From the IMG/VR virus record IMGVR_UViG_3300020044_008444, positions 1-47,092 of that record: a stretch of 47,092 bases of DNA; one strand, written 5' to 3'. This DNA is from a virus. Its lineage: Duplodnaviria > Caudoviricetes. The notes below the pieces were generated by a model that saw nothing but the letters and a program-made list of their open reading frames with translations, searched no databases and was not told the DNA's origin. Below are positions 101 to 32,128 of the stretch, piece by piece. Every line of letters starts with the position of its first letter. The stretch's first letter is position 1. The translations under genes were made by a program, and so were the position numbers.

Positions 101-191
101 GGCACTGATGACTTGACGTGCGTAATAGCGTCTTCCAGCTGTACAATTGATATGCTATTGCCGGGAGTTGGATCTAAGCTGCCACTACTAT
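97..191 (-). repeat. Perfect 95-bp inverted copy of 1176..1270
   Basis: Reverse complement of 97..191 equals 1176..1270; the ORF track shows the same peptide SSGSLDPTPGNSISIVQLEDAITHVKSSVPL on both strands. Confidence 0.95.
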
Positions 192-219
192 TGACATTTG
201 ACAAACCAACTTCTACTCT
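191..219 (+). promoter_or_regulatory. Sigma70-like promoter
   Basis: TTGACA-N17-TACTCT upstream of the first operon. Confidence 0.55.
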
Positions 220-277
220 TCTCACACGTCCATAAGACAAGCTCATCGCAACTCACGAATAGAAAGGAAGGTGTACT

Positions 278-307
278 ATGAAACACGTCTACTACTTCGC
301 TATCTAA
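278..307 (+). CDS. 9-codon micro-ORF MKHVYYFAI (possible leader peptide)
   Basis: Strong SD-like AAAGGAAGGTG just before the ATG; lies downstream of the promoter; not in ORF track. Confidence 0.35.
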   Translation: MKHVYYFAI

Positions 308-414
308 ATATTATGCGTTCGTCATCGGCCTGAGCCAACGCCGTGGTGGCTAATCCACGGCACTCTTCTCACATGCGTTTGCGTCCGTCCCAATTCAGCT
401 CAAAGGAAAGCCTC

Positions 415-783
415 ATGTTGTCAATGAAACACAAGCTTCAGCTCATGCAATTCGTACAGGACTACAACAGTCAATGTACCGTGCCTACTCTGATTGCTGA
501 TGCTGAAGAATACCTATCAGCTCATAACAACGATCAGAAGATTAGTGTCACCACTGCTGATCTGAAGGAAGCATGTAAGAATGCTGACATGAAGTGGAGT
601 GCTATTTGTAGTACAGGTACGTCACCAGTAGCTTTGCTTCACATCAAGGTAGCAGAGCTGATTGCTGATAGGGACAGGTTGGAGTTCCAGCTGGATAACC
701 TGAAGCATGAGATTAATGATCTGAAACATCAGGTGCGTACATTGAAAGAGACGATGAGTCCTTTGCGTCTTGTACAACCATAA
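415..783 (+). CDS. Hypothetical protein with C-terminal coiled coil
   Basis: ORF 343..783; start moved to ATG 415 because AAAGGA precedes it; heptad-rich C-terminus. Confidence 0.75.
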   Translation: MLSMKHKLQLMQFVQDYNSQCTVPTLIADAEEYLSAHNNDQKISVTTADLKEACKNADMKWSAICSTGTSPVALLHIKVAELIADRDRLEFQLDNLKHEINDLKHQVRTLKETMSPLRLVQP

Positions 784-811
784 ACTATTTCTTCAGTAAA
801 GGATTGAGGCA

Positions 812-1000
812 ATGAGCGACAGAATACTTGTTGCCATAGGAACATACAAATCAATAGAGGGCACACATAATTGGTACGGTATGCCCTCCAAACTCGATGT
901 TGTATGGATTGCTTCTCGTCGTCCTCTACCGTGGTACGAAGTACAGATATGGTTTGATTACATGTCCACAGTTAAAGACCTTCTCTCAGCAGGATTTTGA
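812..1000 (+). CDS. Hypothetical protein
   Basis: ATG with upstream AAGGA/GAGG; packs between neighbours. Confidence 0.6.
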   Translation: MSDRILVAIGTYKSIEGTHNWYGMPSKLDVVWIASRRPLPWYEVQIWFDYMSTVKDLLSAGF

Positions 1001-6143: not shown

Positions 6144-6484
6144 AACATGTTCTGTTCATTGTTGGTATGCTTCTGCTCTTCTTGCCGGTAGGCACAGATG
6201 TACCGCCCCCAAATCCTGATGTTCCTCCTGCTCCTACTCCTGTAGTACAAGACCTGTGGGACGTTGCTTCAGACAACTACAGAGTGCTGACAGCTGAAGT
6301 GTTCGAAGAACTCGCCACAAAAACATTCAACAGCGACGAAGAGAAGCTTAAACACATTCTTGACCACACTACAGCTGCTCGCATGGGAGCGTTCACAGAG
6401 GTCAATAAGCGTATCCAATCTGCTGCTAAGGATAATACCTTCGCTGATCTGGCCAAAGCCCTTAAAGAACGAGGATTGAAGTAA
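6140..6484 (+). CDS. Signal/TM-anchored protein with Pro-rich linker
   Basis: MKHVLFIVGMLLLFLPV then PPPNPDVPPAPTP and a helical domain. Confidence 0.7.
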   Translation: MKHVLFIVGMLLLFLPVGTDVPPPNPDVPPAPTPVVQDLWDVASDNYRVLTAEVFEELATKTFNSDEEKLKHILDHTTAARMGAFTEVNKRIQSAAKDNTFADLAKALKERGLK

Positions 6485-7350
6485 TGGTAACGAAGTTGCC
6501 CACACCAAACGGTCAAGCCTACGTTCCTGATCAGTGGTTCTCTGGATATGATCCAACAATTGAACCCAGAGAACTCCTGTTCGCCGAATGTATTGACTTC
6601 GATGTAAATGACCTGCTGGTTCAAGGAGACCTCCCTGACACTCGTGGTATTAAAAACATCATGCGTCGAGATGATCAGGGACGCATCAATTCATGCTCTG
6701 GATTCGGTATGACAGGAGCAGGAGAAGTAGCCTACTTCCTGCAGTCATCCAAATGGCGACAGTTCAACCCTATGTGGTCTTACCGTCGTGGTCAGGAAGT
6801 TAACAACATCCGTACCGACTCTGGTGCTACAATTCAAGGTGTTGTTAAAGCTGCTAAGGAAGTAGGATTTCTTCCTGAAGATATGGACGGTGATGGTAAT
6901 GTCGAAGTTCCATATCGCGAAGACTACGGTATGCGATTCCCAAGCAATGCAGCTGAAGTGGCTGCTAAATGGAAAGTCGGCTACTCAATCAACCTGAGAG
7001 GCTATGATGAAATTCTCAAATATCTTCAAGCCAATCAAGGTGCGGTTATTGTTGGCGGAAGTTGGGGCAATTGGCGTCCCAATGCAAGAGGTATTGCTAA
7101 TAATTTTGCTAGTGGTGGTGGCGGACATGCTCGCTGCTATGTCGATTGGATCACCATTGACGGGGTGGTATACCTCGTGGAATGCAACAGCCACTACTCC
7201 AGTTATGGAGACAACGGATTTGCCTACCACAGCAAACAGTTTGTAGACCAGCAAGCTGCTGATCGTTTCACTGTAACAATTGGTGTATCTGACCTCTCAA
7301 GCCCTGAACCACGATTCATCGATTGGAGCAAACAATGGTTGCTTGGATAG
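6484..7350 (+). CDS. Papain-like (C1 family) cysteine peptidase
   Basis: DQGRINSC (oxyanion Q, catalytic C), GGHA (His), ECNSH (Asn), YGDNGF. Confidence 0.85.
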   Translation: MVTKLPTPNGQAYVPDQWFSGYDPTIEPRELLFAECIDFDVNDLLVQGDLPDTRGIKNIMRRDDQGRINSCSGFGMTGAGEVAYFLQSSKWRQFNPMWSYRRGQEVNNIRTDSGATIQGVVKAAKEVGFLPEDMDGDGNVEVPYREDYGMRFPSNAAEVAAKWKVGYSINLRGYDEILKYLQANQGAVIVGGSWGNWRPNARGIANNFASGGGGHARCYVDWITIDGVVYLVECNSHYSSYGDNGFAYHSKQFVDQQAADRFTVTIGVSDLSSPEPRFIDWSKQWLLG

Positions 7351-9404: not shown

Positions 9405-10574
9405 GTGCCGACGACCTCACCACTACGTCCAAACGCGACACTCAATTCCGGCTGGGGCGGAAGCAACCCGTTCACGCTGATTGATGACGCGACGACTCAG
9501 CCCACAGCAGGCGGAACGAGTGACTACGCATATTATTCAGGTGATTCGTCTGGTGCTCAGCAATACGGTTGTGCGTCACCGACAGTAACAGGGCTAATCA
9601 CCAGTGCAAAACTGTGGGTGTACCTCAAATTTGACAGCAACAGCGACGGCGACATCAGTGCGGTGCGAATCCGTCTCAACGGTGTGTGGAGATCTGGAAC
9701 ATTGACGGGCAAGCCGTCATCAGGTGCATGGGGGTGGGCATCATGCACGGTGACGGGTGAATATGGTGGGCTCAGTAGCTCAGCACCAGCGTTCGAAATG
9801 ACCTACACTGGGGCAACGCCTGACGGTGAAGTCTATGTGGACGTCGCGTACTTGGAGATCACCTACGATTCGATGCCGACACTGAGCGGCGCACCGGTAA
9901 TTGAAGGCGTTGCGGTAACCTACTTCTCAGCCAATCAAACAACACACACAGTCAACCTGCCGTCTGGCATCGCATCAGGTGACTTGCTGCTGTTGTGGTT
10001 CAACAAAGACGGCACATCAGGAACCATCACAACACCATCGGGCTGGTCTATTGCTATCTCCACAATCACTGCAACCGATCAGAGTATTTTGTTTTCAAAG
10101 ACAGCCTCAGGAAGTGAAGGAACTACTGTTTCTGTCACGACGTCTATCAGCGAATCAAGCACCTGCATTGCGTACAGAATCTCGGGATGGACTGAAGTTG
10201 TTTACGCAAACACCACCCTAAGCACTACAATGCCTTATTTCCCACCATCAACGATTGCGACAGAGACAGCAGGAACGATCGCGATTGCGATGTACTCCGG
10301 CACTGGTGCGGTTGCTGAACCTGCTGAATTAAGCAATGGACCAATCGCATGGACTGTCGCACTCGGAAATTCAGCCGATAGCGGCAACACCGTAGCAGCC
10401 TATTCACAGGCGGCAATTGTAAATGCGGTGGAAGGCGTAGAGGTTTATAGTTTCCCCTGGCGGTACGGATCAAACACATCTGGTAGATTAGTCTCAGTCG
10501 CAGTACACGGAACTGCAGCAAGTGGCGGTAGTGGCGGATTGTATAACACTTTGTCAACAGGGCTGGTGCGTTAA
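9405..10574 (+). CDS. Two-domain beta-rich virion/fibre protein
   Basis: Ser/Thr/Gly-rich; N-domain resembles repeats in the 27122 tail protein; C-domain VNLPSGIASGDLLL...TPSGW is common in phage virion proteins. Confidence 0.65.
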   Translation: MPTTSPLRPNATLNSGWGGSNPFTLIDDATTQPTAGGTSDYAYYSGDSSGAQQYGCASPTVTGLITSAKLWVYLKFDSNSDGDISAVRIRLNGVWRSGTLTGKPSSGAWGWASCTVTGEYGGLSSSAPAFEMTYTGATPDGEVYVDVAYLEITYDSMPTLSGAPVIEGVAVTYFSANQTTHTVNLPSGIASGDLLLLWFNKDGTSGTITTPSGWSIAISTITATDQSILFSKTASGSEGTTVSVTTSISESSTCIAYRISGWTEVVYANTTLSTTMPYFPPSTIATETAGTIAIAMYSGTGAVAEPAELSNGPIAWTVALGNSADSGNTVAAYSQAAIVNAVEGVEVYSFPWRYGSNTSGRLVSVAVHGTAASGGSGGLYNTLSTGLVR

Positions 10575-12373
10575 TGTTTCGTAACCTCACAGAAGACGCA
10601 ACCATTGAAATCTACTTTGAAACATTCGCGTCAACGGGAGCACCAGTTGCACCATCGTCAGCGTTTACAACCAGCGATTTTGCAATCTACAAAAATGGTT
10701 CTGCAACAGCCAAAGCTACTACCAACGGGCTAACTGTAACGAGTCCGTTCAACTCGGAAGCCGGTTGTCATTTGCTCGTAATTGATACCAGTAACGACAC
10801 GGGGGATACTGGATTCTGGACAGCAGGAGCACGTTATCAGGTCAAGTTCAACACCGCGAAAACGGTCGGTAGTCAATCCATTGATGGTGCGTCAGTGCCT
10901 CGTGGATCATTTGGGATTCAGTCGGAATATGAAGGTGCGAATGTAGTATCTTGGAGAGGTAGTACGCCGAATGCACTGACAAGCGGGCGAGTCGATGGAA
11001 TTGTCGGTGCTTACGCTTCAGGACAGGCACCATTACAACCAACTACAGCAGGCAGAACGCTGGACGTGACCGCGACGGGTGCCGCTGGTATCGACTGGGC
11101 AAACATCGAAAACGCCACAGCAACGAATCAGTTCAGCGGAAGTTACATCGCTCTGCAAAACAACCAAAACGTGAACCTGAACGACGGTGCAATCACTGCT
11201 GCCAAATTTGCAGCAAACGCAATAACTGCTTCAGCATTGGCTGCTGATGCTGCAACAGAGATTGGAGCAGCAACACTAGCAGCACTTGGCACAGGTACAT
11301 GGGCTACAGCCATCCCGTGGAACGCAGCATGGGATGCTGAAGTACAATCTGAATGTGCAGATGCGATCACAGCAGCTGGTGTTATGACAGGAACATACAC
11401 AGCTCCTGATAACGCGACGATAACGCTGATCAATGCGAAAACAACAAACCTGCCATCAGATCCAGCAGACGCATCAGATATATCTGCGGCATTCGGTACA
11501 GTGAACACTACTCTCAACACAATAGCTGAGTACATTGATACCGAAATCGCAGCAATCAAAACAAAAACGGACAATCTTCCAACAGACCCAGCAGATCAAT
11601 CACTGATCGTCGCTGCAACTGATGCAATCATATCCCGACTCGGCTCACCAGCAGGTGCGTCTATGTCAGCTGACATAGCTTCTGTAAAAACCGATACAGG
11701 CAACCTAGTCACTCGTATCCCCGCTGCTCTATTCTCAGGGATTACATCTCTTGCTGATTGGATTCGTCGTATAAGTCGCAAGGATGCTGGTACAGCTGGT
11801 ATGATTGCTGCTGAAGCTGAGATTGATACAGGAGGTACTTCTACCTTCACAGGAACCACAGATAGCCTGGAAGCTATCGCTGATGCCTCTGGTGGTGGAG
11901 GTGCTGGCGATGCCTCACAAACCACTCTGCTCGCTGTTAAAGCTAAGACAGACCTGATAGGTACGGCTCAAGGCATTACTTCTCTAGAAGCTGCTGCTGT
12001 TCTTGACGCAGGCACAATCTCTGGCTTCCCAACAGAACTGATTGTTGGAGATAGCTACGACTCTGACAGCGGTGAAATTGACGTTACCATCGTCGATGCT
12101 GAAGGTGATCCTATCACAAGTATGGGGAGTCTCAACTTCTCAGCAGCAACAATTGAGTTCACGGCCTACCGCACAGGCGATCCATCATCCATGCACCTGT
12201 CTGGTACGTGTACTTACGCCAACAGTATTGTTAGTATCACTCTTCCTTCTTCAGTAACAGCTCTCGGCAAACCAGAATTTACCTACGAAGGTAGATTGAA
12301 GTTCATTTGGACTGCTGCTGATGCTCAGAAGACATTCAAGACCACTCAATTTAAGTTTGTAGAAAATCCATGA
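10574..12373 (+). CDS. Fibre-like virion protein with KT(D/T)NLP.DPAD repeats
   Basis: Ala/Thr-rich; repeats INAKTTNLPSDPAD / IKTKTDNLPTDPAD; GAITAAKFAANAIT. Confidence 0.65.
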   Translation: MFRNLTEDATIEIYFETFASTGAPVAPSSAFTTSDFAIYKNGSATAKATTNGLTVTSPFNSEAGCHLLVIDTSNDTGDTGFWTAGARYQVKFNTAKTVGSQSIDGASVPRGSFGIQSEYEGANVVSWRGSTPNALTSGRVDGIVGAYASGQAPLQPTTAGRTLDVTATGAAGIDWANIENATATNQFSGSYIALQNNQNVNLNDGAITAAKFAANAITASALAADAATEIGAATLAALGTGTWATAIPWNAAWDAEVQSECADAITAAGVMTGTYTAPDNATITLINAKTTNLPSDPADASDISAAFGTVNTTLNTIAEYIDTEIAAIKTKTDNLPTDPADQSLIVAATDAIISRLGSPAGASMSADIASVKTDTGNLVTRIPAALFSGITSLADWIRRISRKDAGTAGMIAAEAEIDTGGTSTFTGTTDSLEAIADASGGGGAGDASQTTLLAVKAKTDLIGTAQGITSLEAAAVLDAGTISGFPTELIVGDSYDSDSGEIDVTIVDAEGDPITSMGSLNFSAATIEFTAYRTGDPSSMHLSGTCTYANSIVSITLPSSVTALGKPEFTYEGRLKFIWTAADAQKTFKTTQFKFVENP

Positions 12374-14748
12374 CAACTTCTGCCCCAAGCAAAGCTGTTA
12401 GGTACGACAAATTCCTGAGAGGTGGTAACAAGAAAATCTCTCAGGACGTACCTGTCCCAATCAGAAAAAATCACAGACTTGTAGGGTACGAATACAAGTC
12501 TGTCAGGCTTTCTGAACTGTTGCGAATGATTCCGATGTATGACGTTTTCCGTGAAGCGGAAGACTACTACTTCGATTTAGATGAGATGCACCAGTTTGTA
12601 GAGTTTGTTATCAATGAATGTGTCTACCCAGAAGGTGAACTAACAGGTTTGCCATTCATTCCAGAACTCTGGCAATGGGCAGTGTATTTCAACATCTTCT
12701 GTTGGAAGCACAAAGAGACAGGTTACAGACGATTTAAAGAGGCATTCATTCTGGTGCCTCGCAAGAACGGCAAAGCTCTAGACCTGAACACTAAGATACC
12801 AACACCAAACGGTTACGTATCTATGGGGGAAATCACTGAAGGTCAGACAGTATTCGATAAAGACGGCAGACAATGTTCTGTCACACATGTGCATGATGTG
12901 CTTGAATCTCCAGAGTCATATGAAATTGTCTTCTCCAACGGAGAGAAAGTCAAAGCTTGTGCTGACCATCAGTGGTATGTAATGTTCGGCGAACAACAAT
13001 CAGAGTGTGACGTTCTGTCAACAAAAGAAATTTACAATATTACTGGTGTAACAAACGTAAAATTCTCTGTACCAGCCCCTTACATTGATAGCGGACCCAA
13101 ACACGTAGATATTGCCAGTGTAGCACCGTGCGACCCTGTGCCTATGCGGTGCATCACTGTGGACTCACCATCCAGAACTTATCTGTTTGGCGAGACCATG
13201 CTTGCAACACATAACACGGTTTCGTTCGGAGCAATTCCAACGCTCTACATGTTTTACGTTGATAAGGAACAACGATCCCAGAATTTCTGTTGTGCTGCTG
13301 ACATCGAACAAGCATCGATTAACTTCCGTCATACAGCGTACATGATCGAGCAGAATCCAAACCTGCTCAATCGTCTACGTCAGAACAAAGTTAATAGATC
13401 CACAAAGAGCTTCGAACATGCTAAAGACGGCAGCATGTTTAAAGTGCTGTCTGCCATTGCTGAAACCAAACACGGACTATCCCCTAACTTTGCTTACGTA
13501 GATGAGGTACACGCACACAAGAGTAGTGAGCTTATCGACGTAATGCTGACAGGTACGGCAGCTCGTAGACAATCTCTCACAATCTACACAACTACAGCAG
13601 ACTATGACAGACCATCGACATGTAATGAATTGTATGAGCGTGCCAAACGCATTGCCTCTGGTGAGATGTCTGACGTTTCTTTCCTTCCAGTGATATATGA
13701 AGCGACAGTAGACGATGACTTTGAAGATGAACGTACATGGAAGAAAGCTAATCCAAATTACGGCGTCTCCATCTACGCCGAATACTTTGAACGCAACATC
13801 CGTCAGTGTAAATCAAACCCTGTTCTGTTAAATAGGTTCTTACGCCTCCATCTCAACATCCGCACTAAGACAGAAACAGTATGGATTCCTACATGGGTAT
13901 GGGCTAACGGCAACCACACCGAGAACCATTTATTATCAATTGACGAAATCAAAACTCTGCTTTATAATCATCGTCTGTGGCATAACTTTGCAGCAGACAA
14001 TGAATGGTTCAACAACAGTCAGATAGACCTCTACCTCACTGAGTTCCAAGGTTACTTTACATGGTACTTCAGAAAGCTTGAAGAACTGCAGGATGTCGAA
14101 TGTTACGGGGGTTATGATAACTCCTCAGTTAATGATATTGCTTCCTTCAGTTTGTACTTCCCCAGTGAAGGGGTAGTAATGCCGTGGTTCTGGGTTCCAG
14201 CTGAATCCATTTACAAACGAAGTGTTGAAGAACGTCTTCCTTACGACAGATGGTTCAAGTCAGGCCTAATCAATAATACTCCCCTCGCATCCATATCTGA
14301 ACGAGATATAGCCAAAACTCTGACAGGTGACGGTAACCAAAAAGGTATATGCACCTATTTCAGAAACCTTCAACTCGTCTGTTTTGATGCGTGGGGTTCA
14401 AACTTCATTTACGAAACTCTCTACAACGCAGGGCTGCAAGCAAAGAAATACCCACAGTCCTACGTAGGGATGAATGGTCCTTGTCGGAAGCTCCAAGCTG
14501 ATATAGAGAACAAAGAATTGTTTCACGGTTCCAATCCAGTCCTAAGATGGATGATGGGAAACGTGACAATGACAACAAACAACAATGATCAGATGAGACC
14601 AAACAAACAGAAGTCCACAGATAAGATTGACGGTGTAGTTGCATCGTTAATGGCTATCGGAGGGCACATGTATTCTGGTCAGCAAATGATCACAAACATA
14701 TCAGGATTGAGAGAAGCAAATGAGCTGGAATCCCTTCCGACGACGTGA
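12370..14748 (+). CDS. terL: Terminase large subunit (intein-containing)
   Basis: LWQW, VPRKNGK|T Walker A, YVDEVH Walker B, YTTTA, WKKANP, FDAW, DKIDGVVA. Confidence 0.97.
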   Translation: MTTSAPSKAVRYDKFLRGGNKKISQDVPVPIRKNHRLVGYEYKSVRLSELLRMIPMYDVFREAEDYYFDLDEMHQFVEFVINECVYPEGELTGLPFIPELWQWAVYFNIFCWKHKETGYRRFKEAFILVPRKNGKALDLNTKIPTPNGYVSMGEITEGQTVFDKDGRQCSVTHVHDVLESPESYEIVFSNGEKVKACADHQWYVMFGEQQSECDVLSTKEIYNITGVTNVKFSVPAPYIDSGPKHVDIASVAPCDPVPMRCITVDSPSRTYLFGETMLATHNTVSFGAIPTLYMFYVDKEQRSQNFCCAADIEQASINFRHTAYMIEQNPNLLNRLRQNKVNRSTKSFEHAKDGSMFKVLSAIAETKHGLSPNFAYVDEVHAHKSSELIDVMLTGTAARRQSLTIYTTTADYDRPSTCNELYERAKRIASGEMSDVSFLPVIYEATVDDDFEDERTWKKANPNYGVSIYAEYFERNIRQCKSNPVLLNRFLRLHLNIRTKTETVWIPTWVWANGNHTENHLLSIDEIKTLLYNHRLWHNFAADNEWFNNSQIDLYLTEFQGYFTWYFRKLEELQDVECYGGYDNSSVNDIASFSLYFPSEGVVMPWFWVPAESIYKRSVEERLPYDRWFKSGLINNTPLASISERDIAKTLTGDGNQKGICTYFRNLQLVCFDAWGSNFIYETLYNAGLQAKKYPQSYVGMNGPCRKLQADIENKELFHGSNPVLRWMMGNVTMTTNNNDQMRPNKQKSTDKIDGVVASLMAIGGHMYSGQQMITNISGLREANELESLPTT
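12775..13215 (+). mobile_element. Class 3 mini-intein (147 aa) in the TerL Walker A motif
   Basis: Starts Ala (ALDLNTKIPTPNG); block B ADHQW; block F MRCITVD; ends ATHN with Thr +1; no endonuclease domain. Confidence 0.9.
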
Positions 14749-22616: not shown

Positions 22617-22913
22617 ATGCACTTGTCAACCCGTTGGGGGGTTCCGAGCTGGGTGATACGCAACCTGCCTGCTCAAGAATTCATTCGTCAGAAACTCTTT
22701 TGGGAAGCTCACTCGTGGGGAATGCAGGACGATCTTGCTGCCATGACAGCTTCCCAAATTCATTCTCAGCGAGTAGGTAAACTCCCAATTGATGCAAGAG
22801 ACATAAAGTCGATTGCTACCAGTGATTGTAAATTCGTTCCTTACATAGTCGAAGATCCTATGACTCTAAGGGACCAGATATTTAATGTTCTGCAAACGAT
22901 GGGGAAAGTCTGA
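22617..22913 (+). CDS. Tail assembly chaperone, frameshift extension (gpT-like)
   Basis: -1 frame relative to the upstream chaperone; abuts the tape measure start. Confidence 0.7.
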   Translation: MHLSTRWGVPSWVIRNLPAQEFIRQKLFWEAHSWGMQDDLAAMTASQIHSQRVGKLPIDARDIKSIATSDCKFVPYIVEDPMTLRDQIFNVLQTMGKV

Positions 22914-25708
22914 TGGCTGAAAGCATTCATGACTGGGCAGTGAAGTTGGGGATGGTTGTTGACAACGCATCCATCTCAGCTGCTGAAAAGCTGATGGACA
23001 ACTTCGCTGCCTCCACCGTCAAGAGCAACGATCGTATCAAAGCATCTAATGAAGAACGTGCTAGAGCTGAACAACAAGCTCAGAAGATGCGTGAGGGAGA
23101 AAAAATCAGACAGGCTAACCTGTCTATGGAAGACTCCACAGAAGAACGTAAGGTAAAGCTGGGCGGATTATTTGCAGCTGGTGCTGTCAGTGCTCAGTTG
23201 TTCGTTACCGAACTGAAGAACATCAACGCTGAATATCGACAGATGGCCTCTGTTGATACACCAGCTGTTGCTAAGTTTGGGGCAGGCGTACAAGCTCCCT
23301 CATTTGAAGCTGAAGCAGCTAGAGCTTCTGAGCTTGCCAACCTTAAAGCCGACATAATTGCTCGCAGTCGAATTGCTGCTCAACAGGCAGCAGATGAGCA
23401 GGTAGCAGCTGACAACGCAGCTCTACTCTCCTTCCAAGCAAACTCTATGCGTCGTCTTCAGGACGAACAGCAGTCAGCTCAGCAGCTGAGAGAGATGCGT
23501 GACTACTACAGAGCACAGGAAGTTGAAGCTGCTCGTACAGCCGCAGATCAAATTGCTGCTGCTGAAAATGCTGCTGCAGATCAGCAAGCTGCTCGTATTG
23601 CTGCGTACAACAGAGAAGTACGTAGAGAAAATAATGATCGATGGAAAGAGTCTGTCAACGCAGCTGCTACAGCATCAGACAGAGAACGTCAGATTGAAGA
23701 AGCGAACGCTGCTGCTTCTCGACAGCAAGCAACTCGAACAGCTGCCTTTGATAGAGAACAGCGTAGAGCAGCTAACGACAGATGGAAAGAGTCTGTCGAT
23801 AACGCAGGTAGAGCTTCTGCAGCAGATCGTGAAGCAGCTACGCAACGTGAAAATCTCGATCGTCAGCAGGCTGCAAGGACGGCAGCGTACAATAGGGATC
23901 AACGCAGAGCTGCTAATGATACGTGGAAGTGGCAACAGGATCAGATTGGTGCTAGAGCTTCCAATGCTCGTGCTGCCGCTGCAGAAGCTGCTCAGGTAGC
24001 CAGAGTCAATGCTCTACTCCAGCAGTATGGTAATCATGCCGAGAACGTAGCAGCAGACATTGCTTTCCTTAACGCTGCTCATCAGCGGGGTGCAATCTCT
24101 ACTCAGCAGCATGGTGTGGCTATTGCCGAAGCAACACGTCGCATGAATGCTATGCAGGGCGGTGCGGGCAACATGGGCTACGCTATTGGCGAACTTGCTC
24201 GTGGTGCTGAAGACTTCATCACAGTTATGTCTATCACAGGCTTCAGTGCCGAGTCTTTCGGTATGGCTGTGCGTGGTGCAGGCAACAACATCAGTCAGGC
24301 TACTAATCTGATTTCTGGTCCCCTTACTGGTGCTGCTGTGGGTATTGCTGCTATTCTCGGTGGGCAGTTAGTGACCTCTTTAATGAGGAGCAATGAAGAA
24401 ACCGGCAATTGGAATAAAGCTCTCAAAGAGACTACAGAACGTCTTGAGGCCATTGCTAAGTTCAAAACATCAGAGCTGGAAACATCTTTCGCAGTGCAGG
24501 ATGTGAGCAAAGATGATGTCTTCAAAAATTCTGAAGGTATCCGCGATGGTGTACGGGAGATGGAAATACTCAAATCGCAGATAAATGAAGGCGAAGAGAG
24601 TATGCGAGCATTCAATGGAGAAATGCTTAAAATAGCATTAGGCAATGGTGCTGCTCAAGAACTTGAAAATGCTTTTAGTGACTTAGGTGAACTAGGATTT
24701 GGCAAATTAGAAACAAAATTCAGAAATGAATTTAAGAACATATCTGATGTTATGGCTGATCAGATAAATAAGGGCATTGCTCCTGACGCAGCATTCGGAA
24801 CATTTAAAGAACGAATGCGTATTCTTACTACTGATTTGAGTAATGAACTCCTTCCGAAAAAGCACACTCCGGGGCAAGAAGGTCCAGTCTTATTAGCAAA
24901 TAATCCTGCTGATGTTCAAGCTCAGATCGATTCTTTGAAACAGGTAGCTGAGTTGGACGAAGATGGTAAGTCTCGCCTTAAAGAGTTGATTAAACTTCGA
25001 CAAAACCTTGATGCTGTTGAAGCGATCCAAGCAGAAAGACAGGCACAACAAGCTAAAAAATTAGCAGAGTTTGAGTCAAAACGTGACATAGACCACTGGC
25101 GGCGATTAGCTGTAATCAATGCCACATCTCAAGCTGAAAAAGACGCAGCGGAAGACTCAATTAGATTTTACAAAGCTATAGACGAGTATAGAGAGTCTGG
25201 AATGGGACATCTACAATCCATCCGACTTGCCACAACTGATCGAGATCAAGCAAAAGAATTAAGAGATGCAGAACGAGAACGGGCATCCTTACAAGAACAG
25301 GAAGTTGAAAACGCCAACACACTCAAATCTCTTAAAAAAGACTTGATGGATGTCGATGAACTTGCATTGCTCCAACTCATGACAGCCGAAGAACGTAAGG
25401 CTTATGAATGGGCTAAGAAGCGTGCTGAGATAATGATCACAGGTGCTGCCAGTCCGGGTGAGCTTGAAAATATATTTGCTCAGCAAGCCAACTTCCGAAT
25501 GGCAGAGATTGATCAGGAGTTCAAGAAGTCTGCTCCAGCATACCAGACAGCAGGTAGCAATTTGGCTCAGACAACAGCTTCTATGAATTCAGAGATTCTT
25601 AGAGGTATGGGACAAACAAAAGATAAAGATATGATTAGTGAGTTGAAAGCAATCAAAGAAGCTCTCACTAATCCTCGTGGTGGTATCAAGTTAGTAGAGG
25701 TGGACTGA
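22913..25708 (+). CDS. Tape measure protein
   Basis: 931 aa, Ala/Gln/Glu-rich helical protein with a central hydrophobic segment; position. Confidence 0.88.
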   Translation: MAESIHDWAVKLGMVVDNASISAAEKLMDNFAASTVKSNDRIKASNEERARAEQQAQKMREGEKIRQANLSMEDSTEERKVKLGGLFAAGAVSAQLFVTELKNINAEYRQMASVDTPAVAKFGAGVQAPSFEAEAARASELANLKADIIARSRIAAQQAADEQVAADNAALLSFQANSMRRLQDEQQSAQQLREMRDYYRAQEVEAARTAADQIAAAENAAADQQAARIAAYNREVRRENNDRWKESVNAAATASDRERQIEEANAAASRQQATRTAAFDREQRRAANDRWKESVDNAGRASAADREAATQRENLDRQQAARTAAYNRDQRRAANDTWKWQQDQIGARASNARAAAAEAAQVARVNALLQQYGNHAENVAADIAFLNAAHQRGAISTQQHGVAIAEATRRMNAMQGGAGNMGYAIGELARGAEDFITVMSITGFSAESFGMAVRGAGNNISQATNLISGPLTGAAVGIAAILGGQLVTSLMRSNEETGNWNKALKETTERLEAIAKFKTSELETSFAVQDVSKDDVFKNSEGIRDGVREMEILKSQINEGEESMRAFNGEMLKIALGNGAAQELENAFSDLGELGFGKLETKFRNEFKNISDVMADQINKGIAPDAAFGTFKERMRILTTDLSNELLPKKHTPGQEGPVLLANNPADVQAQIDSLKQVAELDEDGKSRLKELIKLRQNLDAVEAIQAERQAQQAKKLAEFESKRDIDHWRRLAVINATSQAEKDAAEDSIRFYKAIDEYRESGMGHLQSIRLATTDRDQAKELRDAERERASLQEQEVENANTLKSLKKDLMDVDELALLQLMTAEERKAYEWAKKRAEIMITGAASPGELENIFAQQANFRMAEIDQEFKKSAPAYQTAGSNLAQTTASMNSEILRGMGQTKDKDMISELKAIKEALTNPRGGIKLVEVD
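23582..23950 (+). repeat. Three 141-nt (47-aa) repeats in the tape measure gene
   Basis: QQA.R.AA(Y/F).R..RR..ND.WK starting at 23582, 23723 and 23864. Confidence 0.85.
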
Positions 25709-26751
25709 TGGCTGCAGGCATTAAGAAGATTCATGGCTTCCTTCAGGAAGAGCAGGATATTCGTCCTTTCTTCAATCGCACTGAGATTAAAGAAGTAGTT
25801 CGTGTTGAAATGAACACGACTAACTTTGGTCTTCAGGACAATGCGATTGATATGATTGAGTTCCTGCCTTCCTTCGCCTCTGGTCCGGGCGATCCAAGTA
25901 TCAATCCTCTACAGATCACGTTCACGTTGTACCAATCGCCTCACCCCAAAGCTGCGAGCTTAGTTCTGCTCGAATGCTCCGGTATCAAGCGTGTCTCAGG
26001 TAGTGGTACGTTCTATGACGTAACATTAAACTACGGCAACTTCATTCCCGGTGAAATCACCACCGTAGAGAACTCCAATAGCCCTAATCCCGGCACACCT
26101 ATTGTTAGTCCTCTGCAGCAACCACCTGTATGGTCTTCCAGCAGCAACATTGTCCAGAAGCAGACAATGACTAAACCAAATGGAGATCCTATTATACATG
26201 AGAACGGATTAGCTCTTACTTCGCCTATAACCTACGAAGAATCTCATACAGTCCATACATGGAGCTTTAATGTCAACTACACCAATATTAACTACAGCAG
26301 TGACATTGCTTCTTACGTTGGTTTTGTAGGTAAAAAAACAGACACATTATTCGGTATTAGAGCTTCCTATTGGAAGTTCACCGCAGCTTCAGCTCAGGAA
26401 ATGCGTGAAAGCTATGGAACAGGTAAGCAAAGAGTTAAATTCCACTACTTAAAATGCCAAGTAAGTTTTGAGTACAATCCAAGTGACTGGGTAAATGATG
26501 CAAAACTCTTTTCTCGAAGCACCTACCAAAGAGTGAATGGTAAGCTCATCCCAATTAAAATCAATGACTTAGGAGACAGAGCACAAGAACCGTGGACACT
26601 ACAGATCAAAGAACCTGATGGCGACTGTTTTGCTGTACCTTATAACGTAAACCCCCCCGATACGAGTCTGTACGCTGAACTTAAAACAGGCTACCCACAG
26701 ACAGCAAACATCGGTATTGTTCCTTCAACTTATGGATTGAGCATACCATGA
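25708..26751 (+). CDS. Tail tip / distal tail protein
   Basis: Directly after the tape measure gene; beta-rich. Confidence 0.6.
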   Translation: MAAGIKKIHGFLQEEQDIRPFFNRTEIKEVVRVEMNTTNFGLQDNAIDMIEFLPSFASGPGDPSINPLQITFTLYQSPHPKAASLVLLECSGIKRVSGSGTFYDVTLNYGNFIPGEITTVENSNSPNPGTPIVSPLQQPPVWSSSSNIVQKQTMTKPNGDPIIHENGLALTSPITYEESHTVHTWSFNVNYTNINYSSDIASYVGFVGKKTDTLFGIRASYWKFTAASAQEMRESYGTGKQRVKFHYLKCQVSFEYNPSDWVNDAKLFSRSTYQRVNGKLIPIKINDLGDRAQEPWTLQIKEPDGDCFAVPYNVNPPDTSLYAELKTGYPQTANIGIVPSTYGLSIP

Positions 26752-27113
26752 CACAAGAATTCGGTGTATATGACCCGGCTACAGCAAAAGAGATCAAACG
26801 TCGTGTAATGGGGGACTCTCGCAGCACAAAGCTCGGGTACGACTCCGAATCAAGACCTCTACAATCAGAATACTACGGCGTACTTACTGAAAATTTAGCA
26901 GCAGCTACAAATCCTTACGCTGGTTGGACAAAAGCAAATGTTAGAATTCTTATGTACTCTGACTACAGTGCTCGTAACATGGTGCCTGCAAGCGGAGATG
27001 AAGCGTTAATTGAAGCAGTGAACAGGTCTACAAGTTTGAGTGCGTCTTCTGGTAAATTCGTCATAATTAAACAAATTATGAACGAATGGGCTTTTATTTG
27101 GGTAGATTGTTGA
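26748..27113 (+). CDS. Tail-associated protein
   Basis: Coupled to the upstream gene; ends WVDC. Confidence 0.6.
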   Translation: MTQEFGVYDPATAKEIKRRVMGDSRSTKLGYDSESRPLQSEYYGVLTENLAAATNPYAGWTKANVRILMYSDYSARNMVPASGDEALIEAVNRSTSLSASSGKFVIIKQIMNEWAFIWVDC

Positions 27114-27121
27114 GGTGTACT

Positions 27122-30100
27122 ATGGGCAGACCTCCTGCGTGTCATTGTATCTGTGGTAGTGAACTGTGTTCGGGCTGTGATATCAATTCTAACTTATCAA
27201 AAATTGAGATAACATGTAACGGATCTTTCAGCTGGGGCGTAACCGATGCTGTTGCTACAGATGTGAACTACGTACGGAGTGGTGTGGCATTAGTTGCTGC
27301 GAGAATTGAACAATACGCTAGTGACCTGTCTGTTTTTTCAGGCACTATAACTCTGTGGAAAAGACAAAATCTCACAGATATAGCTCTGGGTAATGTGAAT
27401 TTTATATCCGGATACCCACCGCACACGTGTATGTGGTATCAAGATTTCCCAAGAATGTTTCACTACGCATGGCACAACTCAATAAATCCGGACAGATTTC
27501 CAAATACAGCAAGCACTGTAGGTCCGGAGTTAGAAATGCTTTTGGAGTATATCCCTCTAAATGAGTTAGATAGCGAAGACCCTTGGAACAGAGAGATAAT
27601 AGTCAACATCGATCCTGAAGGTGAAGAAGAAACAATTACTTTTACAGAGACCGATGAATTTCTAGTTCCAGAAAATGTTGTTAGATTGACAGCAGAAGTG
27701 TGGAGTGGTGGAGCTTGTGGTGGCGTTTACGAAGCAGAACGATCATTTTTACCATCAGTAGATGTTACAAATGTGGGTTTGTGGATTGCAGAAGGTTCAT
27801 CACCTTTATGGCAGTGCATAAACGAATTGCCGGTATCGAATTCTGATTACATCTATTCCCCAGCTAATGCTGTATGCACTTATGAAACTAAATTAAGTAC
27901 GGGTTCTTTATTCCCATCTCCAGCCGAAAATAACTTAACCCTACATTATAGAATGTGTAAAAGTGATAACGATGGTACACACTCTATTGACGTACAAGTA
28001 GAGACATCTCGCCCATCCGGCAACATCAACTCTGAATGGACTGTACCAACTGCTTCAAATATAGACGACGTTATTTTTGCTCCTAGTGCTGGTGACGGTA
28101 ACGTTTGCTCAACATCTCCACCAGCATCTTTCATTGTTCGTGCAGCAGACTCCGAACTCGATGAAGTAGTTACACAACCATCAGCCGGAGATGGAACTTA
28201 CCTAAGTTTCTCAGACCCATTAGCTCCCAACACCAACGTCTATACATTTGAGTTACAGACAGCAACAGAAACTTCAATCCCAACTAACATCACAGCTTGG
28301 ATGCTGCTTCGATACGACTCAAACAGTGATGCAGAAATCACACAAGTACGTTTACGCTCTGCTGGAACATTTTACACAGGAACAATCAGTGGATTGCCTG
28401 ACTCTGGATTATGGGCATGGGTAAGAGTTGATTTTTCAGGCACATTCACTAATCCGTCAGTAGCAGACTACGCGATTGAAATAACCACACATTACTATAC
28501 CGTCGACGGTCGTTTGGATGTGGACGCAATCTACATTGAGTGTGATGGCGGAGAACCGCCATTTACAAGAGTGCAGCAATGGAGCATGTCTACAATCGAT
28601 GTAGCAGCTGTTGTTAACCAGTACGACCTCTACATTCGCTGGAGAGTTGATGTTGGAAATCTCAGCAATGTAACATCAGTTCGTGTTCGAATTAACGGTA
28701 GTTGGTTTGTATTTACAATGGATAACCTACCTACCAGTAATACATGGGTGTGGGCACACGGTGTACGTACAGGTAGTTTTTCTTCAGCGTCTACAGCAGA
28801 CTACGTGCTAGAAGTGACAGCAGTTCATAGCAGCACAACAGGTGTGGTGGAGATTGATGCTGCGTACCTACAAGCTAGCATAGAAGGATCTAGAATAGCT
28901 ACTACAGTTAGTTTACGCACCAGTAGTGCGACAATATTAACCAACACACACTTTCTAACAACCCACCCAACAGACTACGCAATAACTCTTACTGACGCTC
29001 AAGTTGCTCTCCTTACTTCATTAAATGATTTAAGAATTAGATTCCTTACAACCGCTTCAGGAGGTACAGGCAGTTTCCAACGTGGATGCTCAGTATTTGG
29101 AGCTAGATTAACCACTACAACTAATTACGTCGGTACTGGTGGTGGAGGTGGTGGTGGTTATAATAAATCGTTTATTGGTGTGGCCGCAGAAACAGTATAC
29201 ACTGTTACCGTTGGTGCGGGCGGAACACCAACCGTTCCTAATGGTGGAACATCATCTTTTTCTACCATAGTAGTATTAGGTGGAAAAACAGCAAATAACC
29301 TAATTGGTGGAGCAGGCGGTTCGACATCTACTTCCAGCCCTCCAACAACTAAAAAATATTCAGGCGGTAACGGTGGTACAGCATCTATCACTGGAGGTGG
29401 TGGGGGATCTTCCGCTGGTGTATTAGACCCCGGAACAGCAGGTGGTGATGGAGATGGACTAGGAGTAGTGCCGGGTAGTGGAGGTGTAGCCCCAACAGGA
29501 GGCGGAGATGGTGGAGAAGGTGGAGACACTACTGCTCCATCCGATGGTGAGTTCCCCGGTGGTGGTGGTGGGGGACTTGGCAGTTTAATCACAGATCCAG
29601 GAAATGGAGCTAACGGTAAAGTAACACTAACTTACCAACCGTGGGGTAGATGTGGTAGGTGCCTTGTTGATACTTTTCCAAATCCATTCACTGGAGAAAT
29701 TGTATGCACTGCAGGAGAGTTAAGTAGTTCTGTTGTGTTCACATGGCAATGTGCAAACATATATCTTGACACATCGATAAATCTTTATTTATCGTGGGGA
29801 TACCCTCCCAATACCAGAACTACATGGGAAGCTGTCAGGGGTATCACAACAAGAACAGGCAGTATTTACTACGCCCCAGTTCCCTACTCTCAACAAAGCT
29901 TAGTCACAAATAAACAAAAATTTTGGGTTCTGGATTTCACCTACACTGTTGCTCGTGCTCTGCTGCTGCAAGAAAACGCTTACCCATTACGTAATCCTTT
30001 AAGTGCAGCAGAAGACAGCTACGCTCCTCCTGTTCCTTTAGGAGGTTTCGACCCAAGAATACGAGATACATCGCTGCCTGATTATAATCTGCTCCCGGCA

Positions 30101-30283
30101 ACATCAGGCGTAAACCATATAGTCCGCTATGCCAAAGTGGTAAATTGTGAAACAGATGTAGCTGGTGCTGAGATCGAACTGCAATTTAATAACTACCCAT
30201 CTAGAACAGTACTATTTAATCCAGACATTCCTCAAGCAGTAACATCTTCTGTCCCAACTTCAGTTACAGTGAAATTACTATGA
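27122..30283 (+). CDS. Large tail tip / receptor-binding protein with a glycine-rich domain and nested beta-sandwich inserts
   Basis: ORF 27086..30283 with likely start MGRPPACHC (27122, after GAGG); Gly-rich TVTVGAGG...GNGANGKVTLTY. Confidence 0.75.
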   Translation: MGRPPACHCICGSELCSGCDINSNLSKIEITCNGSFSWGVTDAVATDVNYVRSGVALVAARIEQYASDLSVFSGTITLWKRQNLTDIALGNVNFISGYPPHTCMWYQDFPRMFHYAWHNSINPDRFPNTASTVGPELEMLLEYIPLNELDSEDPWNREIIVNIDPEGEEETITFTETDEFLVPENVVRLTAEVWSGGACGGVYEAERSFLPSVDVTNVGLWIAEGSSPLWQCINELPVSNSDYIYSPANAVCTYETKLSTGSLFPSPAENNLTLHYRMCKSDNDGTHSIDVQVETSRPSGNINSEWTVPTASNIDDVIFAPSAGDGNVCSTSPPASFIVRAADSELDEVVTQPSAGDGTYLSFSDPLAPNTNVYTFELQTATETSIPTNITAWMLLRYDSNSDAEITQVRLRSAGTFYTGTISGLPDSGLWAWVRVDFSGTFTNPSVADYAIEITTHYYTVDGRLDVDAIYIECDGGEPPFTRVQQWSMSTIDVAAVVNQYDLYIRWRVDVGNLSNVTSVRVRINGSWFVFTMDNLPTSNTWVWAHGVRTGSFSSASTADYVLEVTAVHSSTTGVVEIDAAYLQASIEGSRIATTVSLRTSSATILTNTHFLTTHPTDYAITLTDAQVALLTSLNDLRIRFLTTASGGTGSFQRGCSVFGARLTTTTNYVGTGGGGGGGYNKSFIGVAAETVYTVTVGAGGTPTVPNGGTSSFSTIVVLGGKTANNLIGGAGGSTSTSSPPTTKKYSGGNGGTASITGGGGGSSAGVLDPGTAGGDGDGLGVVPGSGGVAPTGGGDGGEGGDTTAPSDGEFPGGGGGGLGSLITDPGNGANGKVTLTYQPWGRCGRCLVDTFPNPFTGEIVCTAGELSSSVVFTWQCANIYLDTSINLYLSWGYPPNTRTTWEAVRGITTRTGSIYYAPVPYSQQSLVTNKQKFWVLDFTYTVARALLLQENAYPLRNPLSAAEDSYAPPVPLGGFDPRIRDTSLPDYNLLPATSGVNHIVRYAKVVNCETDVAGAEIELQFNNYPSRTVLFNPDIPQAVTSSVPTSVTVKLL

Positions 30284-30600
30284 TCTGCCCATTCAACAAC
30301 TCCGGTATATGCACCCATTACGCAAAAGCAGGGTACAGAATAATCACACAGCAAGACTGTGATGTGTGTACCCTCGTAGATACTAGAAAAGCTTCTTGCA
30401 GCCATAAAGGATCTGCAAGAAGCTGCTGCGTGGACCTACATATATGTAGGAAACTAAAGAAAGATTGTGTCGAATCTCTAATTCGATTTACACAATACGC
30501 AACAGAAACAAAACATCCAGAAGAGTTTGTGGAACGTATTGTCTGCTGCGAAACCTGCGAGCACAACTCTACACTTCAACTTCCTTCTCAGGAATCCTGA
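30280..30600 (+). CDS. Cys-rich small protein (12 Cys in 106 aa)
   Basis: ATGA coupling to the tail gene; CxxC and CC motifs. Confidence 0.65.
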   Translation: MICPFNNSGICTHYAKAGYRIITQQDCDVCTLVDTRKASCSHKGSARSCCVDLHICRKLKKDCVESLIRFTQYATETKHPEEFVERIVCCETCEHNSTLQLPSQES

Positions 30601-32128
30601 CGTACACAAGTTTGTGAATAGCTCTTGTGATAGCTACAAACTTCAGATTCCATTCCTGCTTCTTAGCCTCAGCTGTCTTAGCCAGAACATGTGGTACGTT
30701 CTTAGGATTGAAGAAATACACATTATCAGCTTCCAATCCCTTAGCTCGATGAATGCTGCTCAGTCGAATTGACTTCACATCACTGTCATTGAAAATCTGC
30801 TGAATAAAACTCACAACTTCAGTGCTTGTTTTGCAGTTGGTTGCGACAGTGGCGATGCAGTCAGCCTGATCACCAATTGCAATCTGTCGACTCACAGTGT
30901 CGTATTTCTTCGTCTGCAGCAACTTAATCTGCTGGTCTCTCCAATCTTCCAGCAGCTGACACAACGTCACAGAATCCACTTCCTGCTTGTCTGTCAGTTT
31001 GTTGATGAGTTTAACTAAACCTGCTCCAATGCTGCGTCCTACAACCTGACAAGGCTTTCCAGCTTTGACCAGCTTCCATGCCAGTGACATGAGTGGAGCA
31101 TTCACTCTGCTCACCAGCATATCCCCTTGCTGCAGGTCCATGTCAGCTTCATCCAGATAAACAATTTCACCTTCTGGATTCGTACTGCCAGCATTGATTG
31201 CGTCACCCACAATCTTCTGAGCTTCAGCTACGATAGCTTTGCCACAACGGTATGTGTAACTAAGAGGCAACACTTCCACTTCATCCATTGCTTCAGCAAT
31301 CTTACTGAAGCTGTCTGTCTGTGCTCCAGCGAATGCAAAGATAGCCTGATTTGGATCACCAACAAATACAAACGTAGTACAATCCTGATTTGCAATGAGC
31401 TGGAGCTTGCCAGCTGAGAGATCCTGGGCCTCATCTGCTATGATGCAGTCAGCTTTAATCTTCCATCCATATCGAGCAGGCAGGTAAATCATATCATCAA
31501 AATCAATCTCCATGCCCTTCACAGGCTTAGCTTTACCAAATGCTGAAGCCCTTCGTTCTTCTCGAACAGGCAGTGTGCTTCCTTCTTCCAGCACATACTT
31601 GACAGGCAGCTCACATGCTGAAGCTGATGAGCTGAATGTATATTCATTGTCGATAGCCAATCCTGCCAATGATGATTCTGTGATGTCATCCTCAGTGAGT
31701 ACAGCATCTTTACAATACTTCACCAGTTCTCTCACATCATCAAGAATTGCTCTCTGAGCTTTCGACAATTCTTTGACACTCTTCACCTGACAAAACTGCT
31801 GATACAGATTTGCTGTCTTCCATGTGTCGGGCCTGCCAATACGAATTCCATTCTCTCTCATGATGCGACAACCCAGAGAATGAATTGTTGTTGCTGATCC
31901 GAATGTCAGACGTTCTTTCAATTCTGTTGCGATTGCATTCGAGAACGCACACACAACTACTTCATCTTCAGAAGTCAACTCAGCTTTCAACCAATCCCAA
32001 ATAGCCAGCTGCTCTTCTGATGGTTTATACTTCAGTTGTTTCTTTCCCGCTACCATTGACAGTCCGTCAACGATGGTGGTGGTCTTTCCTGATCCCGCTG
32101 TGGCATTTACAATCAACGCACGTTTCAT
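30569..32128 (-). CDS. UvrD/Rep-like superfamily 1 helicase
   Basis: ATAGSGKTT, TIHSLG, DEAQD, VGDPNQAIFAF, TYRC, SIHRAKGLE, FVAITRA. Confidence 0.95.
   Translation of the reverse strand: MKRALIVNATAGSGKTTTIVDGLSMVAGKKQLKYKPSEEQLAIWDWLKAELTSEDEVVVCAFSNAIATELKERLTFGSATTIHSLGCRIMRENGIRIGRPDTWKTANLYQQFCQVKSVKELSKAQRAILDDVRELVKYCKDAVLTEDDITESSLAGLAIDNEYTFSSSASACELPVKYVLEEGSTLPVREERRASAFGKAKPVKGMEIDFDDMIYLPARYGWKIKADCIIADEAQDLSAGKLQLIANQDCTTFVFVGDPNQAIFAFAGAQTDSFSKIAEAMDEVEVLPLSYTYRCGKAIVAEAQKIVGDAINAGSTNPEGEIVYLDEADMDLQQGDMLVSRVNAPLMSLAWKLVKAGKPCQVVGRSIGAGLVKLINKLTDKQEVDSVTLCQLLEDWRDQQIKLLQTKKYDTVSRQIAIGDQADCIATVATNCKTSTEVVSFIQQIFNDSDVKSIRLSSIHRAKGLEADNVYFFNPKNVPHVLAKTAEAKKQEWNLKFVAITRAIHKLVYVRIPEKEVEV

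Follow-up and report, generated by a model that had tools for sequence, protein, structure and literature searches.

The gene at positions 27122-30283 (+) of the window, i.e., the whole 47,092-base virus record analyzed here, very probably encodes a phage tail-region protein with four nested in-frame insertions, likely a host-attachment fiber bearing predicted sugar-binding-type domains. Along the ORF the order is Cys-rich host [ Gly_rich_2 [ A [ B [ C ] B ] A ] Gly ] host. Every interrupted host has an uninterrupted homolog, colinear with both flanks of the split and with no real gap between them (4/4 levels), bearing out the initial annotation, which had described four levels of domain-in-domain insertion. 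Its boundaries agreed with ours to within a few residues, apart from that between C and the second part of B, which we place near 28555. The nesting is four levels deep by sequence and three levels deep in the predicted structure.

Pfam matches to terminase, portal, and capsid genes mark the window as that of a tailed phage. Residues are counted from the ORF start at 27086 (P0001, 1065 aa), and model coordinates equal the residue number minus 12. The true start is likely M13 (27122), where 4/4 full-length homologs begin (55-91% identity, among 8,000 scored candidates), and the product from M13 has 1,053 residues. Immediately upstream lie a 931-aa tape-measure-like ORF and ORFs of 347 and 121 aa (22913..27113, +), to which roles are assigned by size and order, none having a significant Pfam or PHROG name. 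Directly 3' is a small Cys-rich ORF (30280..30600, +), a conserved partner gene. Pfam detected a single partial domain of the five present in the nested protein (Gly_rich_2, model 32-225), which is why HMM-based annotation overlooks such proteins, and PHROG gave a weak tail-fiber match (E 0.007). Searches of viral contigs with the whole protein and of cultured phages returned nothing useful; the ESM Atlas yielded weak, unnamed clusters, and none for the outer C-half.

The outermost host is a Cys-rich protein whose N-half (27122..27631, +; aa 13-182) matches P0019-P0022 and the proteins of two viral loci, L068 and L069, and whose C-half occupies 29636..30283 (+; aa 851-1065). A profile of the N-half, searched over 1.84 billion proteins, gave six matches: four zero-insert proteins of 280-354 aa, P0005, which was itself part of the query, and P0023, a repetitive protein that was dropped. 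An HMM of the four zero-insert homologs matched P0001 at 21-177 (model 6-159, E 4e-23) and again at 851-1063 (model 147-312, E 3e-11); since these homologs had been picked via the N-half, only the second match is independent. In pairwise comparisons, the outer C-half exceeded 200/200 shuffles for 4/6 zero-insert proteins (z 11.7, 10.1, 7.4, and 4.4) and was not above chance for the other two (z 1.9 and 0.3; 200 shuffles). P0022 likewise scored above every shuffle when compared with the middle of P0001 (632-709, z 4.9), probably because of glycine bias. A search for shorter homologs of the C-half found none among 947 candidates.

Gene order added to this evidence. At L068 and L069, zero-insert genes of 283 and 379 aa occupy the same slot, i.e., after the tape-measure-like gene, in a setting whose upstream order resembles 22913..27113 of the window, and each is followed by a homolog of ORF 30280 (36%, E 7e-4 in L068; 35%, E 3e-8 in L069). 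Overall, zero-insert proteins ranged from 280 to 379 aa. The L069 protein aligned to P0001 in two BLASTP blocks, 6-171 and 852-1037. Taken with the matches above, this makes the cassette an insertion midway into a conserved protein. At the sequence level, the zero-insert HMM and the syntenic orthologs uphold the earlier view that the Cys-containing outer halves enclose the glycine-rich domain. It is conceivable, if somewhat unlikely, that only three true domain-in-domain levels exist, the outer host being two domains with the Gly cassette in their linker. In its favor, a Cys-x-x-Cys motif opens each outer half, and neither half is folded confidently in the model; against it, the halves have no profile similarity to one another (hhalign probability 0.1%), so that no repeat is detectable and we rejected a tandem-repeat origin, and the N-half, by eye, lacks the terminal strands of single-domain Cys-rich slot proteins. 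Two of the latter (L040 and L053) were tried as relatives of the host and set aside, as they aligned significantly to neither half.

The cassette enclosed by this host is a polyglycine domain that is itself split. Its C-part (29132..29635, +; aa 683-850) was recognized by Pfam PF21722, Gly_rich_2, at P0001 679-850 (29.1 bits against a cut-off of 24.3, E 1.2e-6, model 32-225); a genome search with PF21722 gave no candidate within the window. We built a separate HMM from three intact domains, which located the missing model positions 2-32 at P0001 184-214, i.e., in the N-part (27632..27724, +; aa 183-213), and positions 32-211 at 677-850. The N-part was found in 5/5 full-length proteins (cE 8e-4 to 4e-7), as was the C-part, weakly in P0006 (cE 0.011), consistent with the proposal of a glycine-rich domain split around A. 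Assignment to PF21722 rests on the score above the cut-off and on the predicted model, in which the beta-sandwich and polyglycine bundle were matched, N-terminal strands included. The insert, 469 aa comprising three nested domains, lies in the Gly_rich_2 loop following the first glycine run.

Domain A, which had been regarded as the least certain level, proved to be well supported. An intact A in L055 aligned through residues 7-82 with P0001 223-302 (31/76 identical, z 19.6) and through residues 84-159 with P0001 600-670 (30/71 identical, z 19.2), defining an N-half at 27725..27991 (+; aa 214-302) and a C-half at 28883..29131 (+; aa 600-682). A second intact A, from L042, gave z scores of 7.1 and 11.6 against A-N and A-C, respectively. 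Homology of A to B/C was not significant by profile (probability 0.2%), and A and B/C appear to have only the predicted fold in common. The L042 gene (L042:217-3411, -) encodes a 1065-aa slot protein that has an intact A N-terminally and ends in two Gly_rich_2 domains, both intact; it is the same parts kit in another arrangement.

For the innermost level, we built an HMM from six uninterrupted N-domains of the type found in ORF 9405, whose own B/C-family domain lies at 9405..9869 (+; 34% identical to C, E 1e-17). It matched P0001 three times: at 306-347 (model 4-45, E 2e-8), corresponding to the B N-part (27992..28123, +; aa 303-346); at 358-485 (model 24-148, E 4e-27), corresponding to a contiguous C (28124..28555, +; aa 347-490); and at 494-596 (model 46-148, E 9e-19), corresponding to the B C-part (28556..28882, +; aa 491-599). 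The joined halves of B are colinear with the ORF 9405 N-domain, as had been noticed initially; against ORF 9405 by itself, the match is weak for B-N (z 3.7) and strong for B-C (z 19.8). C has a first strand of its own, starting near residue 347, and one loop about 12 residues shorter than that of B. Its family-HMM match and a contiguous CBM-like fold in the model agree with its description as an intact paralog lying inside B. The order of B/C parts is N,N,C,C in 5/5 full-length proteins, an arrangement that simple tandem duplication should be unable to explain. Elsewhere, intact members of the family make up whole proteins of 171-174 aa, form the N-terminal domain of others, or lie within a tail-slot protein that is otherwise unrelated. 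Stand-alone members at L045:7578-8093 (-) and L043:5241-5765 (-) are encoded ahead of the terminase region and end in an identical short hydrophobic tail.

To examine the fold, AlphaFold2 was run on the full protein with a 12-row alignment (mean pLDDT 51.8, pTM 0.34); single-sequence AlphaFold of aa 183-851 gave a mean pLDDT of 36.6 and no usable fold. The full-protein model rejoined the halves of Gly, A, and B, and did not fold the outer halves confidently, so the expectation that separated halves pack together was realized in part. Values of pLDDT fell below 50 in both outer halves, in most of A-N and B-N, and over the initial 25 residues of C, and no fold-search row covered the outer host. 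The extended stalk with C at its tip that the initial annotation had proposed found no support in this model (pTM 0.34). The 30-residue Gly N-part had pLDDT 70-90 between low-confidence flanks, and both Gly halves together (model 167..841) superposed on the Pam3 fiber 7YPX (Z 20.5, rmsd 2.0, 175 aligned). The A halves together (model 205..669) superposed on CBM15, 1GNY (Z 10.0, rmsd 3.0, 133/153), with a bias at that level, since the folding alignment contained two rows of intact A that span its split. For the Gly and B splits there was no such bridging row; intact-B or zero-insert rows were misaligned by MAFFT and kept out. B is discontinuous in the model (310-317..587-589), with Z scores of 7.3-8.1, the best on furin 4OMC residues 451-574 (Z 8.1, rmsd 3.0, 109 aligned, model 317..589), and Z scores of 7-8 are within the range common by chance for beta-sandwiches. 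C is contiguous (model 335..477) and resembles CBM4-2, CBM61, and MAM domains (Z 7.5-9.0). Together, the superposed ranges trace the four inner layers. In the model, the case that the halves form a single structural domain appears strong for Gly, alignment-aided for A, and modest for B.

A, B, and C are predicted to be CBM-like jelly rolls, a fold seen for all three in the model only. Intact A, intact B-family proteins, and C matched no named CBM family in Pfam at the cut-off; the best match, PF14741 (E 0.025), fell short of it. Neither Pfam nor PHROG nor PDB sequence searches named A, B, or C at threshold. The jelly rolls are just 5-14% identical to CBMs, and glycan binding is proposed from the predicted fold. 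Together, gene position and predicted folds make an adhesin function likely. The Cys-rich part would dock on the tail tip, the polyglycine domain would act as a spacer, and the jelly rolls A, B, and C would display glycan-binding surfaces, with C outermost, as an arm projecting from the tail tip. The Gly, A, and B halves are predicted to refold into a polyglycine sandwich and, with C, three CBM-like jelly rolls; because the topology is nested, the chain runs in to C and then back out. An alternative that accepts the nesting, and that we consider doubtful yet worth weighing, holds that the jelly rolls serve as spacers in the structure or decorate the virion, host binding being left to the polyglycine domain or to another protein. 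Fold matches do include non-binding proteins (furin 451-574, FlhE, and ephrin receptors), the same modules occur stand-alone (171-174 aa) and in genes away from the tail, and the zero-insert orthologs have none of them. However, the best matches were CBM15, CBM16, CBM22-type, CBM4, and CBM61 domains, and the inner layers seem to have been swapped between relatives, as host-range determinants would be.

The pairing of the B and C parts bears separate consideration, since an N,N,C,C order also permits a crossed or strand-swapped arrangement, in which B-N completes the first C-part and C-N the second. MAFFT places the first 20 residues of intact domains on B-N and the remainder on C, and both N-parts are of low confidence in the model. 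We nonetheless judge a crossed arrangement improbable, as the two halves of C occur together within a differently split B in L035, and the model has C contiguous and B discontinuous at the positions given above. At L035:116-3121 (-), aa 88-375, a B-like domain is interrupted by a C ortholog at another loop (model 72/80). Its host is a larger tail-slot protein, beta-propeller-like by eye, and constitutes a second, independent nested architecture. Both halves of the L035 C are 52% identical to the C of P0001, compared with 24% and 34% to the halves of B; B-N (aa 303-346) is 51% identical to the N-part of the L035 B-like domain, and in a tree of C-terminal parts the L035 C grouped with the P0001 C (support 97/92). 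By these comparisons C, nested contiguously inside B, travels as a unit, and the C-in-B arrangement most likely arose twice. Its occurrence at a different loop in L035 shows that nesting recurs.

The initial annotation had also proposed that the protein grew by insertion into loops instead of end-to-end addition. Intact hosts at four levels, syntenic zero-insert orthologs, and three pairs of halves rejoined in the model all favor this. A search for homologs with fewer inserts at the same loop had been suggested; zero-insert forms were found, and our searches for forms of the Cys-rich host with one to three inserts returned none, only 0-insert and 4-insert forms being seen. Pre-assembled cassettes could have moved together. 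Since the N- and C-termini of each module are adjacent in the predicted structure, a module would be graftable into a loop, and since docking through the Cys-rich part would need both ends intact, internal insertion would be favored over terminal addition. The insertions may have originated by rare in-frame illegitimate recombination among phage genes with common modules, relatives later exchanging inner layers by homologous recombination. P0005 is 95% identical to P0001 in C and 46/30% in the outer halves, whereas P0004 is 58% identical in C and 78/75% outside; such layer-by-layer differences suggest that inner layers were exchanged. No target-site duplication was found at the junction pairs, where the longest common strings were 6-9 nt, the 9-mer lying in glycine codons, and blastn detected no DNA-level similarity between ORF 9405 and the nested gene, so the insertions probably date far back and were not left by a mobile element. 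That the layers are footprints of an intein-like or transposon-derived cassette is extremely unlikely, since the one point for it, the same C module at two different loops, stands against this lack of target-site duplication and the lack of any Pfam intein or endonuclease family match in the nested protein.

More speculatively, and with tentative confidence, loop grafting may be the main way in which this phage group builds adhesins, closed-ended modules (Gly_rich_2, A, and B/C) being grafted recursively into themselves and into unrelated tail proteins to give telescoping single-chain fibers and recombinase-free host-range cassettes. If so, the concentric layout would allow an entire inner arm to be replaced through a single double crossover in the halves that flank it, and the swapped arms would amount to a host-range cassette system operating without any recombinase.

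Each component has known counterparts. The predicted fold of the Gly domain is the same as that of the cyanophage Pam3 fiber (7YPX), the mycobacteriophage Bxb1 tail tip (9D93; Z 14.6-14.8), and PF21722, and it is likewise encoded in a tail-region gene; a fold likeness extends to the ALK glycine-rich domain (7NX3 and 7LIR, Z 8.2-8.5). Unlike these phage polyglycine domains, that of P0001 holds a 469-aa insert and is itself inserted in a Cys-rich host. A (Z 9.6-10.0), C, and B are predicted to fold like CBMs of the galactose-binding-like jelly-roll class (CBM15 1GNY, CBM16 2ZEW, CBM4-2, and CBM61). Polyglycine-rich domains beside CBM-like domains have been described in phage adhesion devices (10.64898/2026.07.24.740622; PMC13243795). 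In evolved distal tail proteins (Dit), a CBM inserted in a galectin-domain loop is proposed to bind host glycans (PMC9692632). P0001 resembles these in that a predicted CBM-type domain occupies a loop of a siphophage protein probably located at the tail tip, and differs in having four levels where that account gives one (PMC9692632). Its host had no Dit family match in Pfam or PHROG.

According to a 2026 ECOD survey, single-level insertions dominate, deep nesting is a minority, nesting reaches six levels in the cyanobacterial RNA polymerase beta-prime, and inserts are small and require close termini (PMC13114784). The nested cases as presented there follow the same A1-B1-C-B2-A2 logic as P0001; compared with them, P0001 reaches depth four in the product of a phage structural gene, has a paralog inside its own family, and has relatives among phages in which the host of each level is intact, and the word 'phage' is absent from the main text of that survey (PMC13114784). 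Searches of an open-access literature library showed no description of P0001 or of any phage tail protein nested to four levels. P0001 is an extreme and unusually clean case of the known principle of nested insertion. Few proteins are deeply nested, and structure alone is usually the basis for calling them so; the hosts of P0001 are also found uninterrupted in related phages, and one of its inserts recurs at a second loop. It offers a clean natural test case for the inside-out folding of nested domains and for how attachment proteins gain reach and binding sites with their anchoring ends untouched, and it points to loops in polyglycine and jelly-roll scaffolds that tolerate insertion.

Several further observations were made outside the nested gene. 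The large terminase of the window (12370-14748) carries a Hint/intein-like insert (weak Pfam Intein_splicing match, E 0.06), and the near-identical terminase of L043 is about 140 aa shorter at that place. A UvrD-like helicase gene encodes 519 aa in the window (30569-32128) and 818 aa in L046, where some 290 aa are inserted internally and may be an intein. At 6484-7350, a papain-like ORF (Peptidase_C1, E 0.16) lies amid small membrane-type ORFs, a region that is possibly a lysis cassette ahead of the head genes. Finally, G001, G002, and G003 are phages with 94-97% identical ORF 9405 domains, yet their head and tail modules and slot proteins differ, revealing strong module mosaicism.
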